From: a virus
UHGV virus genome: UHGV-0351052
Length of the DNA: 64,000 nucleotides
Strand: one strand, 5' to 3'
Shown here: one piece after another, positions 1 to 6,195 of the stretch
How the letters are laid out: each line of letters opens with the position of its first letter
Position numbering within the stretch: position 1 is the stretch's first letter
Notes under the pieces: model-generated
What the model saw: the letters and a program-made list of their open reading frames with translations, nothing else
Databases searched by the model: none
Told to the model about the DNA's origin: nothing
Program-made: the position numbers and the translations under genes

Positions 1-447
1 TCGTTTGGGGATACCTTATCTCATCACCCAAGAAAGCAAGAAATCCTTAATAAAATTTCAAATGCAATTAAAAATAATAATTCAAAATTATCACCAGAAG
101 AACTTAAGCAAAAACATGGTAGACCTAAAGATATCAAAGGTAAAACTATAGAAGAACACTATGGGTTAGATCGTGCTATAGAACTAAGCAAAAAGTTCCA
201 AGAAAGAAACGCTGCGCTTAATATGAAAGGCATCAATAATCCATATTATGGACAGACACATACCAATGAAGTTAGAAAACGAATTTCTGACTCACAAAGA
301 GGTAAAAAGAAACCCCATCTAAGAGTAAGTATAGATGGGGTAGAATATCCAACAATAGCAGAAGCTGTGCGTCAAACCGGAATAAGCAGAAAACTTATAT
401 CTAAAAGATGTGCTCTAGATTGTTGGGAATCATATTTATACTGCTAA
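1..447 (+). CDS. homing-endonuclease-like protein, C-terminal portion (5' end lies outside window)
   Basis: Frame 1 is open from nt 1 to the stop at 445-447. Translation shows two NUMOD3-like repeats ([14 protein letters not shown]; [20 protein letters not shown]) then an I-TevI-like helix-turn-helix tail ([28 protein letters not shown]). Antisense to td. Confidence 0.5.
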
Positions 448-681
448 AGTTCTACATTCTTCATATTGTTTTTCCGTTAAAACAGTAATATCATAATAAC
501 AGTCAGAAGAAGTTTTAACTGTAGAAATTTTATTATCAAAATACTCACGAGTCATTTTATGAGTATAATATTTTTTGCCATAAATGATAATAGGCTGATT
601 TGGTCCTGGAACTTCTAACTCGCTTGGGTTAGGAAGTGTAAAAAGAACTACACCAGAAGTATCTTTAAATCGTAAAATCAT
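436..681 (-). CDS. hypothetical protein (81 aa) immediately downstream of td
   Basis: ORF track; start overlaps td stop region. No recognisable motif; not NrdA-like. Confidence 0.35.
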
Positions 682-989
682 ATTGCCATTTTCCCTTTAA
701 TTGCTGGATGCGATTCATAATTTTCAAGGATAAAATCTTTCGGTTTCATGTATTCAGTTAACCAGTAAAGCTGTGTTTCGGTGTCACAATTTCCAAACTC
801 TATAGGCCAATCAATTTTAAGTTCACACAGTTCTTTAGGCTCACGACGTAAAATTTCTTTACATTGCTCAGTATGATTCATATAGATGTGAGTATTACCG
901 CCAGAAAATATCAAATCTCCTGGGATAAGATTACACATCTTAGCTACAATATGAACTAACGCAGCGTATGATGCAATATTAAATGGTAG
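678..989 (-). CDS. td: thymidylate synthase, exon 2 (103 codons plus stop)
   Basis: Translation LPFNIASYA...[10 protein letters not shown] is the TS C-terminal half; exon begins CTACCATTT directly after intron 3' end ...CTGAACATAATG, as in T4 td. Confidence 0.9.
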
Positions 990-1435
990 CATTATGTTCA
1001 GATAAGGTCGTTAATCTTACCCCGGAATTATATCCAGCTGCATGTCACCATGCAGATCAGACTATATCTCCAACTTGTTAAAGCAAGTTGTCTATCGTTT
1101 CGAGTCACTTGACCCTACTCCCCAAAGGGATAGTCGTTAGGCATTTATGTAGAACCAATTCCATTTATCAGATTTTACACGATAAGTAACTAATCCAGAC
1201 GAAATTTTAAAATGCCTCTTCCATCTCTTTTCAAAATCTTTAGCACTTCCTACATATACTTTATTGTTTAAAGTATTTTTAATCTGATAAATTCCGCTTT
1301 TCATAAATACCTCTTTAAATATAGAAGTATTTATGAAAGGGCAGTCCTACAATTTAGCACGGGATTGTCTACTAGAGAGGTTCCCCGTTTAGATAGATTA
1401 CAAGTATAAGTCACCTTATACTCAGGCCTCAATTA
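990..1435 (-). ncRNA. group I self-splicing intron of td, short form (446 nt) with internally deleted endonuclease ORF
   Basis: Minus-strand sequence after exon 1 (..TTGGGT) reads TAATTGAGGCCTGAGTATAAGGTGACTTATACTTGTAATCTATCTAAACGGGGAACCTCTCTAGTAGACAATCCCGTGCTAAATTGTAGGACT, matching the remembered T4 td intron 5' end; 3' end matches ...GGGGTAAGATTAACGACCTTATCTGAACATAATG. Confidence 0.8.
1137..1304 (-). pseudogene. I-TevI homing endonuclease remnant (55 codons; N-terminal 33 aa fused in frame to C-terminal 22 aa)
   Basis: Encodes MKSGIYQIKNTLNNKVYVGSAKDFEKRWKRHFK-ISSGLVTYRVKSDKWNWFYINA; T4 I-TevI is 245 aa with these same termini. The GIY-YIG catalytic domain is truncated and the DNA-binding domain is mostly gone. 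Confidence 0.7.
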
Positions 1436-2807
<1,372 letters not shown>

Positions 2808-2817
2808 ATTATTTTCC

Positions 2818-3117
2818 TTAAACAGACTTTTTCACAATTTTCCAATCAGCTTTAAACTGTTCAACGTCAGAATGGTAAATCCAGAATCCTGCGCTTTCTC
2901 CGTCTTCATAAAGCGGACACCCATCGCATTCATCTTCCCATCCCATGCCACGTAAAAGGTGTTCAGCTTTTTCAACAAGTTCAGAATCTTTACCGATGAT
3001 ATTAAAATACCATTTACCTCTAACTTCCGAATCTTTGATGCTCTGACGTTGTAATCTCATTTTATTCTCCTTAGTTGATAAGGCTATAGTATCACTACCA
3101 TAGCCTGTTGTAAACAA
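2818..3117 (-). CDS. hypothetical protein (99 aa)
   Basis: ORF track; 32-frd interval. Confidence 0.5.
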   Translation of the reverse strand: MFTTGYGSDTIALSTKENKMRLQRQSIKDSEVRGKWYFNIIGKDSELVEKAEHLLRGMGWEDECDGCPLYEDGESAGFWIYHSDVEQFKADWKIVKKSV

Positions 3118-3378
3118 TTATTTTTGAATTTTATCGAGCCACTTACCGAGCTTAATCATTTCTTTAGTAGCCTTTTCCATACTTCTGAACTTAACCAATA
3201 GAGGATAGGTATCGACACCCATAACTAAATTGGTTACAAGACTGTGTTCACCCACAAGCCATAACGAATACGTTTGAATATCGAGCCCGTAATTTCTGTC
3301 TTTATGGACCCGTACACCCATCACTTCAAATTTCTCACTAGCTTTTTCTACCGCATCCAGGAAATCATCTTTAGTCAT
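3118..3378 (-). CDS. hypothetical protein (86 aa; start moved to ATG at 3378)
   Basis: ATG at 3378 sits in a TAATATG junction with the upstream stop; ORF-track start is upstream and overlaps. Confidence 0.45.
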   Translation of the reverse strand: MTKDDFLDAVEKASEKFEVMGVRVHKDRNYGLDIQTYSLWLVGEHSLVTNLVMGVDTYPLLVKFRSMEKATKEMIKLGKWLDKIQK

Positions 3379-3379
3379 A

Positions 3380-3766
3380 TTAGGCCTTAAAAGTTTTTCG
3401 CAAAAGTTCAATGATTTCGTCTACATTGTTTTCATCTACAATGCAGTGAATTTTTGTTACGCCAGAAACTATACCTTCATTAGCGGATTGAGGCTTTTCT
3501 AAAGTTACCTCAGTAAAGTATTTGAATTCTTCAGGGTAAATCTCAAAATACGTCTCAAGTGGGCCACCCGCCATGTATTCAGTGCCATCTTCCATAGTTA
3601 CACGTACCACACATTCACCAGCACAATCATCACTTTCCATTTCATCTACAACAAAACTAGGTCCATGCTTCTCTATTAAATTTAGCATCATCACATTGCA
3701 ACGGCACTCGTTAGCAAAGTCATTTTTAAATAAAGGGTTAATGATATAAGTTTTTCCGATTTTCAT
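3380..3766 (-). CDS. hypothetical protein (128 aa)
   Basis: ORF track; 32-frd interval. Confidence 0.5.
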   Translation of the reverse strand: MKIGKTYIINPLFKNDFANECRCNVMMLNLIEKHGPSFVVDEMESDDCAGECVVRVTMEDGTEYMAGGPLETYFEIYPEEFKYFTEVTLEKPQSANEGIVSGVTKIHCIVDENNVDEIIELLRKTFKA

Positions 3767-3810
3767 TTATTTTCTCTCATTTTGATAGGGGCTTAATAGC
3801 CCCTTGATAA

Positions 3811-4038
3811 TTATTGTTCAATCAGTCCCATGTAAAATTCTGCGTCTTCAGAATCCATGCCATCACAATATTCATTAGCCATAAAGCGGGTAAGGTCTTC
3901 AAGAGGACCTTCAATAACGATTTGAATACTCCAAAACTTAGAATCTTGCACGCTTGTGATACTAAGTTCAGGATAACGATTACGAATAATCTCTTCAATA
4001 TATTCAAAATCAACGATGTCAATATCAACTTTAGCCAT
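3811..4038 (-). CDS. hypothetical protein (75 aa; start at ATG 4038 MAKVDIDIV...)
   Basis: GAGGAAAATAATATG ribosome site; the ORF-track N-terminal extension runs through the promoter block. Confidence 0.45.
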
Positions 4039-4077
4039 ATTATTTTCCTCTCTAATCATCAGCAGTATTGCCGATAG

Positions 4078-4132
4078 TTGTATAGTACCATGGAAGAACA
4101 AGGATGTAAACAGTTTTGTGAAAAAATTTTTG
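4078..4132 (-). promoter_or_regulatory. T4-type early (sigma70) promoter block, copy 1
   Basis: Minus strand reads AAAATTTTTTCACAAAACTGTTTACATCCTTGTTCTTCCATGGTACTATACAA: GTTTACA -35-like, about 17-nt spacer, TGGTACTAT extended -10-like. One of six near-identical copies. Confidence 0.5.
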
Positions 4133-4161
4133 AAATAAAAAAGGGGACCTCTAGGGTCCCC
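4131..4161 (-). terminator. intrinsic terminator hairpin downstream of gene 32
   Basis: GGGGACC-TCTA-GGGTCCCC stem-loop followed by a T-run on the minus strand. Confidence 0.5.
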
Positions 4162-4183
4162 AATTAATTAGTAATATAATCTA

Positions 4184-5092
4184 TTAAAGGTCATTCAAAA
4201 GGTCATCCAGGTCCGTGTCATCAGCACTAGATGAACTGCCAGAGCTTGAGCTCATAAAATCATCTTCAGTTTTTGTTTTGAAGTCATCAACATTGAATGC
4301 ATCCAAATCATCAGCAACTTTATCAGCTTTCTTAGCAGCAGTCGCTGCGGCACCACCCATAGCAGCAGTTCCCATAACTTGACTGAACTTAGTGCTCAGT
4401 TCTTCAAATGATTTGAATTTATCTTTAGAAGTCATTTCAGAAAGGTCAACCATTTGTTCGAACAGTTCTTTCTGGAAAGATTCATCATCAATGTTTGGAA
4501 TCGCAGATTGATTCAGGAATTTAGATTCATCGTAGTTACTAAATCCAGAAACCTGTTTAACTTTCAGTACAAAGTTAGCACCTTCCCACGGACAAGTTAC
4601 ATCAACCGGAGTTTCACCCATTTCAACATCAACTGCAATCATTGCATTGATTTTATCCCAGATTTTCTTACCGAAACGATATTTAAATACTTTACCTTCG
4701 TTTTCTGGAGCAGCTGGGTCTTTTACTACAAGAATGTTAGCCCAATAAGAAGTTTTACGTTTAACAAGACTGTACTCTTTATTGTCAGTGTTGTACAGAT
4801 CATTTTTACTGATGTACTGACATACTGGACAAGAATCGTAATCACCGTGGGTAGATGAACAGTTTTCAATATACCATTTACCATTTTTCTTGAAGCCGTG
4901 ATTTACAAGAATTGCGAATGGTGCTTGTTCATCATTTTTAGACGGAAGAAAACGAATTACTGCTTGACCGTTACCCGCATTATCGAGTTTCAGTTTCCAC
5001 TCGCCTTTATCTTCAGAAGAAAAACCACCTTTATTTCCAGCCAGTTTAGCCATTTGTGCAGCGAGTTCAGCAGTAGATTTACGTTTAAACAT
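4184..5092 (-). CDS. 32: single-stranded DNA-binding protein gp32 (302 aa)
   Basis: Near-identical to remembered T4 gp32 ([50 protein letters not shown]...), acidic C-terminal tail. Confidence 0.95.
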
Positions 5093-5170
5093 TTTTATTT
5101 CCTTTTTAATTTAATTTAATTTAATTTAATTAACAGTTGGTGCTATGACGATGTATGACCTCATAGCTGG
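5093..5170 (-). promoter_or_regulatory. gene 32 translational autoregulatory operator (pseudoknot plus (UUAAA)n tract)
   Basis: Minus strand upstream of the 32 ATG: GCTATGAGGTCATACATCGTCATAGCACCAACTGTT then AATTAAATTAAATTAAATTAAATTAAAAAGG; seen on the plus strand as (TTAAT)n at about 5106-5131. Confidence 0.6.
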
Positions 5171-5206
5171 TCAGTGAGATAATTATAATCTATTTATAAT
5201 AAGCAA

Positions 5207-5860
5207 TTAATATTTGCAAGATTTCACAGTTTCAATGAAAACATTTTTAGCTTTCTGTGAATCAATATTTAAAATTTTTCTATAAGCCTTTAACTTTATA
5301 GAATAATTATTCCAGACTAAATTATCAGTCTGTTCATCATGTTTATCAATTATATTTAAAAACGAATCAAGCAAGATAAACGTCTCAAACGAAATTATGT
5401 TCGATTGCAGAAGTTTAAAAATATAACTTGACTGAACCTTTGGATTATATTCAAAGATTTCTTTAAAAGCAGAAACTTCAACTTTCTTACTAAAATAATA
5501 AATGTTGCGAATATCTTCTTCAAACTTAAATTTAATTTGCTTTAAGCGTCCGATATATTCACGATAAAACACAAGTGCATCAGCGTCAGAGATGTCACCA
5601 ATCCAAGCATCTTGGTTAGCAACCAAATTGCTTATAAAGATTAAAGCAAGTTCCTTTAATTTATATTTTTCTGATAACTTCTGGAAAAAATACTTATCCC
5701 TTCGCTTTTGATAAGCGGCATCAGACACCCGCATGCACCAATTATACTTAATAACATCATACTTTCCATTCATATGTTGTTTTATCATTAAGTATAATTT
5801 ATAAACTGATTTACCATCAATGTATCTTTCACCACCAGCAGGCATGCGGAGTTTAATCAT
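5207..5860 (-). CDS. 59: helicase loader gp59 (217 aa)
   Basis: Sequence and length match remembered T4 gp59. Confidence 0.9.
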   Translation of the reverse strand: MIKLRMPAGGERYIDGKSVYKLYLMIKQHMNGKYDVIKYNWCMRVSDAAYQKRRDKYFFQKLSEKYKLKELALIFISNLVANQDAWIGDISDADALVFYREYIGRLKQIKFKFEEDIRNIYYFSKKVEVSAFKEIFEYNPKVQSSYIFKLLQSNIISFETFILLDSFLNIIDKHDEQTDNLVWNNYSIKLKAYRKILNIDSQKAKNVFIETVKSCKY

Positions 5861-6195
5861 AGCAGAAAATCTAATGTATTAGTTTTTTCACAACGAACAA
5901 CAGAAGGACGTAAAAGATTTTCGTCAATGGCTTCTGACTGAATTTTTTCAATTATACCCGAAGGAATAAATTTAGCAAATTGAGTTTCAGGAATAGAATT
6001 TTCTTCTAAGAATGCTGTTGTAGCTTCAAGATAACTCATTCCAAACTCTTCTACCATTTTTTCAATAATAAATCCATTTTCTTGACGATCAAGAAGCTTT
6101 GCTATTTCATCCTTTTCTTTCTTAATTGAAAGTTCTTTTTCTGAAAGACCGGTCTCATCGACCGGACGAATATCATTTAGAGAAAACTGTGTCAT
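5857..6195 (-). CDS. 33: late transcription co-activator gp33 (112 aa; start at ATG 6195 MTQFSLND...)
   Basis: ORF-track start at 6204 is a TTG; ATG at 6195 gives the T4-length product. Confidence 0.75.
   Translation of the reverse strand: MTQFSLNDIRPVDETGLSEKELSIKKEKDEIAKLLDRQENGFIIEKMVEEFGMSYLEATTAFLEENSIPETQFAKFIPSGIIEKIQSEAIDENLLRPSVVRCEKTNTLDFLL

Follow-up and report, generated by a model that had tools for sequence, protein, structure and literature searches.

The Locus and Its Gene Content

The DNA analyzed here, a stretch of 64,000 nucleotides (hereafter, the window), comes from a T4-like (Tequatrovirus) phage. Its left edge harbors a reading frame of the + strand (frame 1), open from base 1 and extending over 148 codons to a TAA stop codon at 445–447. 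The frame is considered below as the 3′ part of a homing endonuclease gene (HEG), the 5′ 285 nt and the promoter of which are situated to the left of the window. All genes adjoining the open frame are on the − strand (Table 1), td, frd, and gene 32 included; hence, a preliminary description of this DNA was right in placing the frame opposite to the td/frd/32 unit. The same description had the frame converging on td, but the convergence is on the nrdA.2 homologue standing between the two: the nrdA.2 stop overlaps the HEG 3′ end by 12 nt, and HEG lies ~0.5 kb from td exon 2.

Table 1. Features at the left end of the window and the evidence for them (positions are those of the window).
Feature	Position	Strand	Basis
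3′ part of HEG (codons 96–243 + TAA)	1..447	+	Open frame; 99.3% amino acid identity to residues 96–243 in Ozark and sutha; full-length gene in the collinear relatives L001, L002, and L013–L020
Best NUMOD3 motif (24 residues)	226..288 (residues 76–96)	+	Pfam PF07460, E 4.2e-7; aligned to 1I3J
I-TevI-type helix-turn-helix (HTH) DNA-binding tail	313..429 (residues 105–143)	+	Pfam PF20987; 1I3J; Foldseek
TATAAATA late-promoter box	433..440	-	Exact match; inside the last HEG codons (Y-L-Y), antisense toward nrdA
nrdA.2 homologue (DUF5496, 81 aa)	436..681	-	Pfam DUF5496, E 8e-52; T4 annotation; junction alignment
Right end of the inserted cassette	448..455	.	blastn and alignments
td exon 2	up to ~989	-	
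td group I intron, 443 nt	990–1432	-	Rfam RF00028, E 3e-8
td exon 1	1433–1984	-	
frd	1981–2562	-	
Gene 32	4184–5092	-	

The td intron of the window is much reduced in comparison with that of T4 (443 vs. 1016 nt). The I-TevI ORF within it (1137–1304, − strand) is an in-frame remnant of 55 aa, with the N-terminal 33 aa joined to the C-terminal 22 aa. What is missing seems to have been deleted between the two copies of CATTTTAAA (RHFK) that T4 I-TevI has at nt 90 and 657; the same remnant allele is present in phage e11/2 and in six metagenome contigs.

In the 148-aa fragment encoded by the open frame, the NUMOD3 profile of Pfam matches two stretches (E 4.2e-7, 30.2 bits at a cut-off of 20.4), the weaker one being located upstream of the motif at 226–288. 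The latter aligns with 1I3J and is the counterpart of the minor-groove-binding helix of I-TevI. The I-TevI_DNA-bd profile scores slightly under its gathering cut-off (E 9.2e-5, 22.7 bits vs. 27), and the same tail aligns with 1I3J, the solved DNA-binding domain of I-TevI, at E 1.8e-7; the predicted structure of the tail is matched to 1i3j_A by Foldseek (E 8e-4, probability 1.00). Since the 148 aa are 99.3% identical to annotated full-length homing endonucleases of other phages, the signal of the fragment is far beyond chance. Thus, the NUMOD3 repeats and the I-TevI-like HTH tail, predicted earlier for the frame from its sequence, are borne out by the profile search and by the solved structure, and the frame very probably encodes the DNA-binding, C-terminal half of a GIY-YIG homing endonuclease of the free-standing kind.

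The Full-Length Gene and Its Product

What is known of the nuclease domain, the start codon, and the promoter of the window copy comes solely from relatives 95–99% identical to it, i.e., from DNA outside the window, and its N-terminus is taken from such relatives collinear with it. The window's own upstream sequence was not found in viral and metagenome contigs by exact-match scans with window-specific 70-mer and 31-mer patterns, nor in viral contigs by a protein-guided scan. In the relatives, the gene comprises 732 nt (243 aa) and lies on the strand opposite to nrdA and td, between nrdA and nrdA.2 or td. It is labeled in GenBank as “homing endonuclease”, “GIY-YIG nuclease”, or “endonuclease I-TevI”, and some Acinetobacter copies already bear the label “I-TevI-like” in databases. 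Three metagenome contigs (L013, L016, and L020) contain HEG in its full 243-aa length; from HEG to frd, across the td intron with its remnant, they are collinear with the window at 95–97% identity.

The 243-aa protein contains a GIY-YIG domain at residues 3–91 (Pfam, E 1e-15), so the nuclease motif to be sought in the complete frame is present in the 99% identical collinear full-length copies, and a nuclease-less DNA-binding protein was rejected as an interpretation. The protein belongs to PHROG 314 (“homing endonuclease”) and scores 130.5 bits against TIGR01453, “group I intron endonuclease” (cut-off 56.05; the window fragment alone scores 28.2 bits, under the cut-off). BLASTP aligns it with T4 I-TevI over 242 aa at 46% identity (E 9e-72). 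The alignment to I-TevI displays retention of the GIY and YIG elements along with R27, H31, H40, E75/76, and N90/91; when the catalytic set of I-TevI (Y6, Y17, R27, H31, H40, E75, and N90) was checked in the full-length relatives, all its members were conserved.

The AlphaFold model of the protein (pLDDT 82.6) is in line with these alignments: the modeled nuclease domain superimposes on 1MK0, the catalytic domain of I-TevI, with a TM score of 0.93 at 1.5 Å and 69% identity, and the C-terminal part matches 1I3J. The resulting order of domains comprises an N-terminal I-TevI-type nuclease, a linker with NUMOD3 repeats and no zinc finger, and the C-terminal HTH.

Replacement of nrdA.1 by the HEG Cassette

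In T4, td, nrdA.2, nrdA.1, and nrdA follow one another on one strand; accordingly, the preliminary statement that nrdA is directly downstream of td in T4 proved inaccurate, since nrdA.2 and nrdA.1 lie between them. T4 does not hold HEG at this place: the site is occupied by nrdA.1, oriented as nrdA. The homology between Ozark and T4 spans nrdA and its Shine–Dalgarno sequence (CATAAGTCCTC), ends there, and restarts in the 3′ part of nrdA.2, at window position ~456, which is where homology to the HEG-less genomes (T4, e11/2, and F26) resumes in blastn and in the alignments. Between these borders, a cassette of 787 bp replaces 300 bp of T4 (L004 7690–7989), which comprise nrdA.1 in full and ~38 nt at the end of nrdA.2. 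The last six codons and the stop of nrdA.2 in the window (436–456) come from the cassette, so that its product has 81 aa vs. 87 in T4. With its rewritten C-terminus, ending in ...EECRTLAV, this small gene persists as a chimera.

The alternation is consistent across the loci compared: none of the 17 with HEG has nrdA.1, and all four without HEG have it. At this place, e11/2 has nrdA.1, like T4. The Klebsiella Jiaodavirus genomes display the same pattern. In RCIP0102 (no HEG), with flanks 99.5% identical to those of PKO111, an nrdA.1 homologue and a 68-aa ORF occupy the spot where PKO111 has HEG and an extra 80-aa ORF. The usual Jiaodavirus form is exemplified by Merci, where HEG is 59 nt from nrdA and the intergenic sequence is homologous to that of Ozark.

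The 80-aa ORF of PKO111 (L003 4414–4656, − strand), unannotated and positioned between nrdA and HEG, occurs in this phage only: neither Merci and RCIP0102 nor the Tequatrovirus loci have an equivalent. It resembles another small insertion into the same hotspot. In e11/2 (L008 524–3692) and in HEG-bearing metagenome contigs (L013–L020, 1–2445), the neighboring nrdA consists of two ORFs with a MobE-like HNH gene between them, reminiscent of Aeromonas phage Aeh1 and its “genes in pieces” nrdA. Thus, the td–nrdA–nrdB region of these phages can carry up to three or four endonuclease genes.

Distribution and Mobility

A megablast search of GenBank phages with window positions 1–700 returned the whole stretch at 97–98.5% identity in nine of 521 matching records, representing eight Escherichia/Shigella Tequatrovirus phages. 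The first 448 nt alone were found at 87–90% identity in a further 18 Klebsiella Jiaodavirus records (of ~150 for this genus). The carriers thus amount to eight Tequatrovirus and about 15 Klebsiella Jiaodavirus genomes. F26 and F1, the phages nearest to the window over positions 456–6000 (96%), have no HEG. The state of td varies among the carriers: Ozark has no intron in td; the intron of sutha, L015, and L019 encodes full I-TevI; and that of the window and of six contigs encodes the 55-aa remnant.

The cassette is far more alike across phage backgrounds than its flanks. Between Ozark and PKO111, it is 91.2% identical vs. 70.5% for nrdA and 73.5% for td. Over ten Tequatrovirus loci, the mean pairwise identity of HEG is 99.8% (minimum 99.3%) vs. 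97.9% for the adjacent 1 kb of nrdA and 97.7% for nrdA.2. By this disparity, HEG has moved recently, by horizontal spread, between phage backgrounds and genera. Its substitution pattern between the Tequatrovirus and Jiaodavirus copies (Ozark vs. PKO111) corresponds to dN/dS = 0.11, a sign of functional constraint. No clear sign of a co-conversion gradient was seen in the flanks: the right flanks of the carriers diverge within ~230 bp, that of sutha being T4-like and those of Ozark and the window e11/2-like. Overall, the suggestion of a mobile-element insertion at the td 3′ flank is supported by the cassette standing in place of nrdA.1, by its patchy occurrence, and by its movement between backgrounds.

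Distant versions of the gene (47–78% aa identity overall) share the slot nrdA(−)/HEG(+)/td(−). The phages with this arrangement include Yersinia phage phiR1-RT (Tegunavirus; 55% aa identity) and Acinetobacter phage Octan (Lazarusvirus; 47%), and the arrangement recurs in metagenome contigs at 75%, 56%, and 54%. In the distant members of the lineage, the HEG end meets or overlaps the td stop. One metagenome contig of this slot lineage (L011) also possesses a zinc-finger I-TevI within its td intron. Aeromonas phage Aes508 has its relative within an intron, and td is followed there by nrdA.1.

Probable Expression as a Late Gene

The element TATAAATA, the T4 late-promoter consensus, is located 30–36 nt upstream of the HEG ATG and is followed by a Shine–Dalgarno sequence in eight of eight diverged loci. 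Since both strands of the 64-kb window contain only five exact copies of it, this positional conservation is not due to chance. The direction of HEG is opposite to that of the early/middle td–nrdA transcripts; HEG is presumably a late gene with a TATAAATA promoter of its own, like I-TevI. For the window copy, AAGTTACCCCATATAAATA would be expected ahead of the 285-nt 5′ part. Scans for sigma-70 promoters and intrinsic terminators around HEG gave nothing above shuffled sequences.

The second TATAAATA box, that of the − strand within the 3′ end of HEG, is conserved in Ozark, PKO111, and L010, lies directly beyond the stop in L011, and is absent from phiR1-RT, L012, and Octan. It could serve late nrdA transcription or give rise to an antisense RNA.

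Relation to Known Homing Endonucleases

The likeness of HEG to I-TevI is comprehensive: the proteins are nearly equal in length (243 vs. 245 aa), share the order of domains, the NUMOD3-type helix, the C-terminal HTH, and the catalytic residues, and are 46% identical as a whole and 69% identical in the catalytic domain. Both genes have a late TATAAATA promoter close upstream and reside in the neighborhood of td. At the same time, HEG differs from I-TevI in being not intron-encoded, in its opposite strand, and in the lack of the linker zinc finger; moreover, its DNA-binding region is only ~30% identical, therefore its target is presumably different. Thus, the catalytic domain, the whole-protein TIGR01453 score, and the NUMOD3 + HTH region place HEG in the I-TevI subfamily, although neither the linker zinc finger nor the location in a group I intron, the features of I-TevI proper, is present.

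The absence of an intron was established with an Rfam search around HEG in Ozark, which detected no group I intron; the same kind of search does find the td intron in the window, and an intron-borne frame was rejected on this ground. The I-TevI zinc finger PF22635, as precomputed for I-TevI-type homologues only, does not occur in the HEG lineage, and the CxC...CxxC (Cys4) motif characterizes all intronic I-TevI-type sequences and none of the HEG lineage. In a rough neighbor-joining tree, built with no bootstrap, the enterobacterial nrdA/td copies form one clade and the Acinetobacter copies another, with the zinc-finger I-TevI separate. Hence, HEG is a full-length, selectively maintained paralogue of I-TevI which is not intron-borne; among free-standing genes, it is the one most closely related to I-TevI. 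At the DNA level, HEG and I-TevI are 70.5% identical over their 5′ 339 nt (L001 4716–5054 vs. L004 9097–9432). In the intron-bearing carriers, these 5′ parts of the two genes are inverted relative to each other and roughly 1.5 kb apart, and could thereby lend themselves to gene conversion or inversion between both endonuclease genes.

With T4 SegA–G, HEG has in common the organization of a free-standing GIY-YIG gene between conserved genes and the patchy occurrence among relatives, and the cassette more alike than its flanks is likewise Seg-like. SegA–G spread by double-strand-break repair with co-conversion of flanks (PMC2988022), which is expected of HEG too. HEG differs from the Seg and Mob enzymes in that it occupies none of the seg or mob sites of T4, including the seven seg sites in Table 1 of PMC2988022, and it is closer in sequence to I-TevI than to Seg: T4-type genomes matched it only at the I-TevI place at E ≤ 1e-5. 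The segD gene is antisense to its neighbors, as is HEG, and has no known promoter (PMC2988022); HEG differs by having a conserved late promoter of its own. Overall, HEG would function like the Seg/Mob free-standing endonucleases of T-even phages while belonging to the I-TevI subfamily by sequence.

A comparable architecture is known from I-BmoI, a relative of I-TevI from the thyA intron of Bacillus mojavensis, with a linker lacking the zinc finger and NUMOD3-type repeats. Likened by description, I-BmoI is associated with thymidylate synthase, as is HEG, but it is intron-encoded and has a Gram-positive host. In MobE/I-TevIII trans homing and F-CphI collaborative homing, a free-standing HEG stands beside an intron-containing gene of nucleotide metabolism, the intron ORF of which is defunct or absent (PMC2790892; PMC2988022). 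The HEG described here differs from these systems since it is equally found by intron-less td, and the sequence comparisons speak against td as the target.

Probable Target and Mode of Spread

The preliminary guess that td or nrdA is the homing target is not favored by the comparison of PKO111 (with HEG) and RCIP0102 (without it). No difference between the two genomes is seen in the first 600 nt of nrdA, next to the cassette, or at nt 200–600 from the td 3′ end, a segment including the I-TevI homing site; there is a single difference at nt 100–200. The remaining differences are confined to the last ~25 nt of td and the replaced segment. Similarly, Ozark and T4 are identical for 100 nt or more on either side of the cassette. 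In the characterized cases of homing, carriers are protected by a sequence difference. If this is true of HEG as well, the identity of the flanks places the recognition site in the displaced segment, of which nrdA.1 is the sole element common to both genera. Hence, the target of HEG probably belongs to the displaced nrdA.1 segment. The nrdA.1 DNA contains 23–24-nt stretches identical between T4 and RCIP0102, and TGGGGAAATTACGTCGGTAAAGAT and TTGTCATGGTGATATAATAGCTC, conserved between the genera, are candidate binding stretches.

The homing site of I-TevI resembles the operator over its own late promoter. An operator-style search with the HEG promoters of Ozark and PKO111 against the td–nrdA regions of T4, e11/2, and RCIP0102 gave best matches of 14–15 out of 20, no better than shuffled controls.

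Taken together, the findings are best read as those of an active, late-expressed, mobile, free-standing GIY-YIG homing endonuclease, a reading to which we assign a probability of roughly 0.85. Late in infection, HEG would be transcribed from its own TATAAATA promoter. During a mixed infection, its product would bind and cut the HEG-less allele of the co-infecting phage, most likely inside the nrdA.1 segment. The break would then be repaired from the HEG-bearing genome, so that the ~0.8-kb cassette is copied in, with nrdA and nrdA.2/td providing the homology arms. The carrier itself would be immune because the target segment is gone.

Competing Interpretations

A tentative and rather unlikely extension concerns the origin of the gene: the nrdA/HEG/td lineage might be a free-standing sister or source of I-TevI, with the intron-borne enzyme arising by invasion of the td intron (the “collaborative homing” route). 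In this case, some members of the lineage might still act on td, and modules might be swapped with I-TevI via recombination of the ~70%-identical inverted 5′ halves.

The strong purifying selection reflected by the dN/dS value, together with the slot, orientation, and promoter kept constant across genera at ~50% protein difference, would also suit an endonuclease domesticated for a non-homing role beneficial to the phage, e.g., the exclusion of competitors or action as a DNA-binding repressor. A point against the preferred reading is that the cross-genus synteny at 47–55% aa identity could also reflect long vertical persistence, not needed by a purely selfish element. For a non-homing role, a precedent is provided by I-TevI, which doubles as an autorepressor (PMC2988022). 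Nevertheless, this role is improbable considering the patchy presence of HEG within both Tequatrovirus and Jiaodavirus, the flanks diverging far more than the cassette (the signature of recent horizontal spread), and the retention of all catalytic residues; in addition, an operator-like repeat of a nearby site was looked for and not found.

Still less probable is the function of HEG as a helper of the td intron, i.e., cleavage of intron-less td near the intron site and, as a result, mobilization of the intron with the 55-aa I-TevI remnant by collaborative or trans homing. The idea draws on the position of HEG as the closest I-TevI relative outside the intron clade, on td exon 2 being only about 0.5 kb away, and on the defunct ORF of the window intron, the remnant allele being present in seven of 11 Tequatrovirus HEG loci; the mobilization of the I-TevIII/nrdB intron in trans by MobE is a precedent (PMC2790892; PMC2988022). 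However, HEG coexists with intron-less td in Ozark, PKO111, Merci, phiR1-RT, Octan, L010, and L012, so such a helper would cut its own genome. Furthermore, the identity of PKO111 and RCIP0102 at the I-TevI homing site of td leaves no protective polymorphism there; hence, by this indirect comparison, a target by the intron site with carriers protected at it, as expected of trans homing, is not observed. The recognition-helix region is also unlike that of I-TevI, in keeping with the low identity of the DNA-binding part.

Finally, it is hardly credible that the window copy is dead, 5′-truncated or otherwise inactive like I-TevI or I-TevIII in some T-even phages: only codons 96–243 are visible in the window and defunct endonuclease genes such as the I-TevI remnant are common in the region, but the 444 nt within the window show just three differences to the intact gene of Ozark (one non-synonymous) with no stop or frameshift, and the collinear contigs with the same remnant intron carry the full gene.

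Significance

The active mobile endonuclease, as preferred here, is annotated in databases but uncharacterized; no description or test of HEG or of nrdA.1-linked endonucleases was found in the literature. In itself, it is an ordinary selfish phage element in the expected kind of place. Homing endonucleases have their reference system in the T-even phages, with 15 catalogued in T4; HEG is not among these and is an additional occupant of the endonuclease-dense td–nrdA–nrdB region, beside I-TevI, MobE, and I-TevIII. The clean alternation of nrdA.1 and HEG in two genera makes for a directly testable prediction of the target.

The nuclease domain of I-TevI is used in genome-editing fusions. As a natural variant of I-TevI that has no zinc finger in its linker and binds DNA through another module, HEG could aid the study of the evolution of linkers and target specificity. 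The chief interest of HEG is, however, evolutionary: a stand-alone I-TevI paralogue permanently resident beside td, with ~70% nucleotide identity to the 5′ part of I-TevI, is relevant to the question of how the endonuclease came to be in the td intron. If the lineage were indeed a sister or source of I-TevI, the two together would illustrate, in the phage system studied best, the states before and after a mobile group I intron arose in nature.
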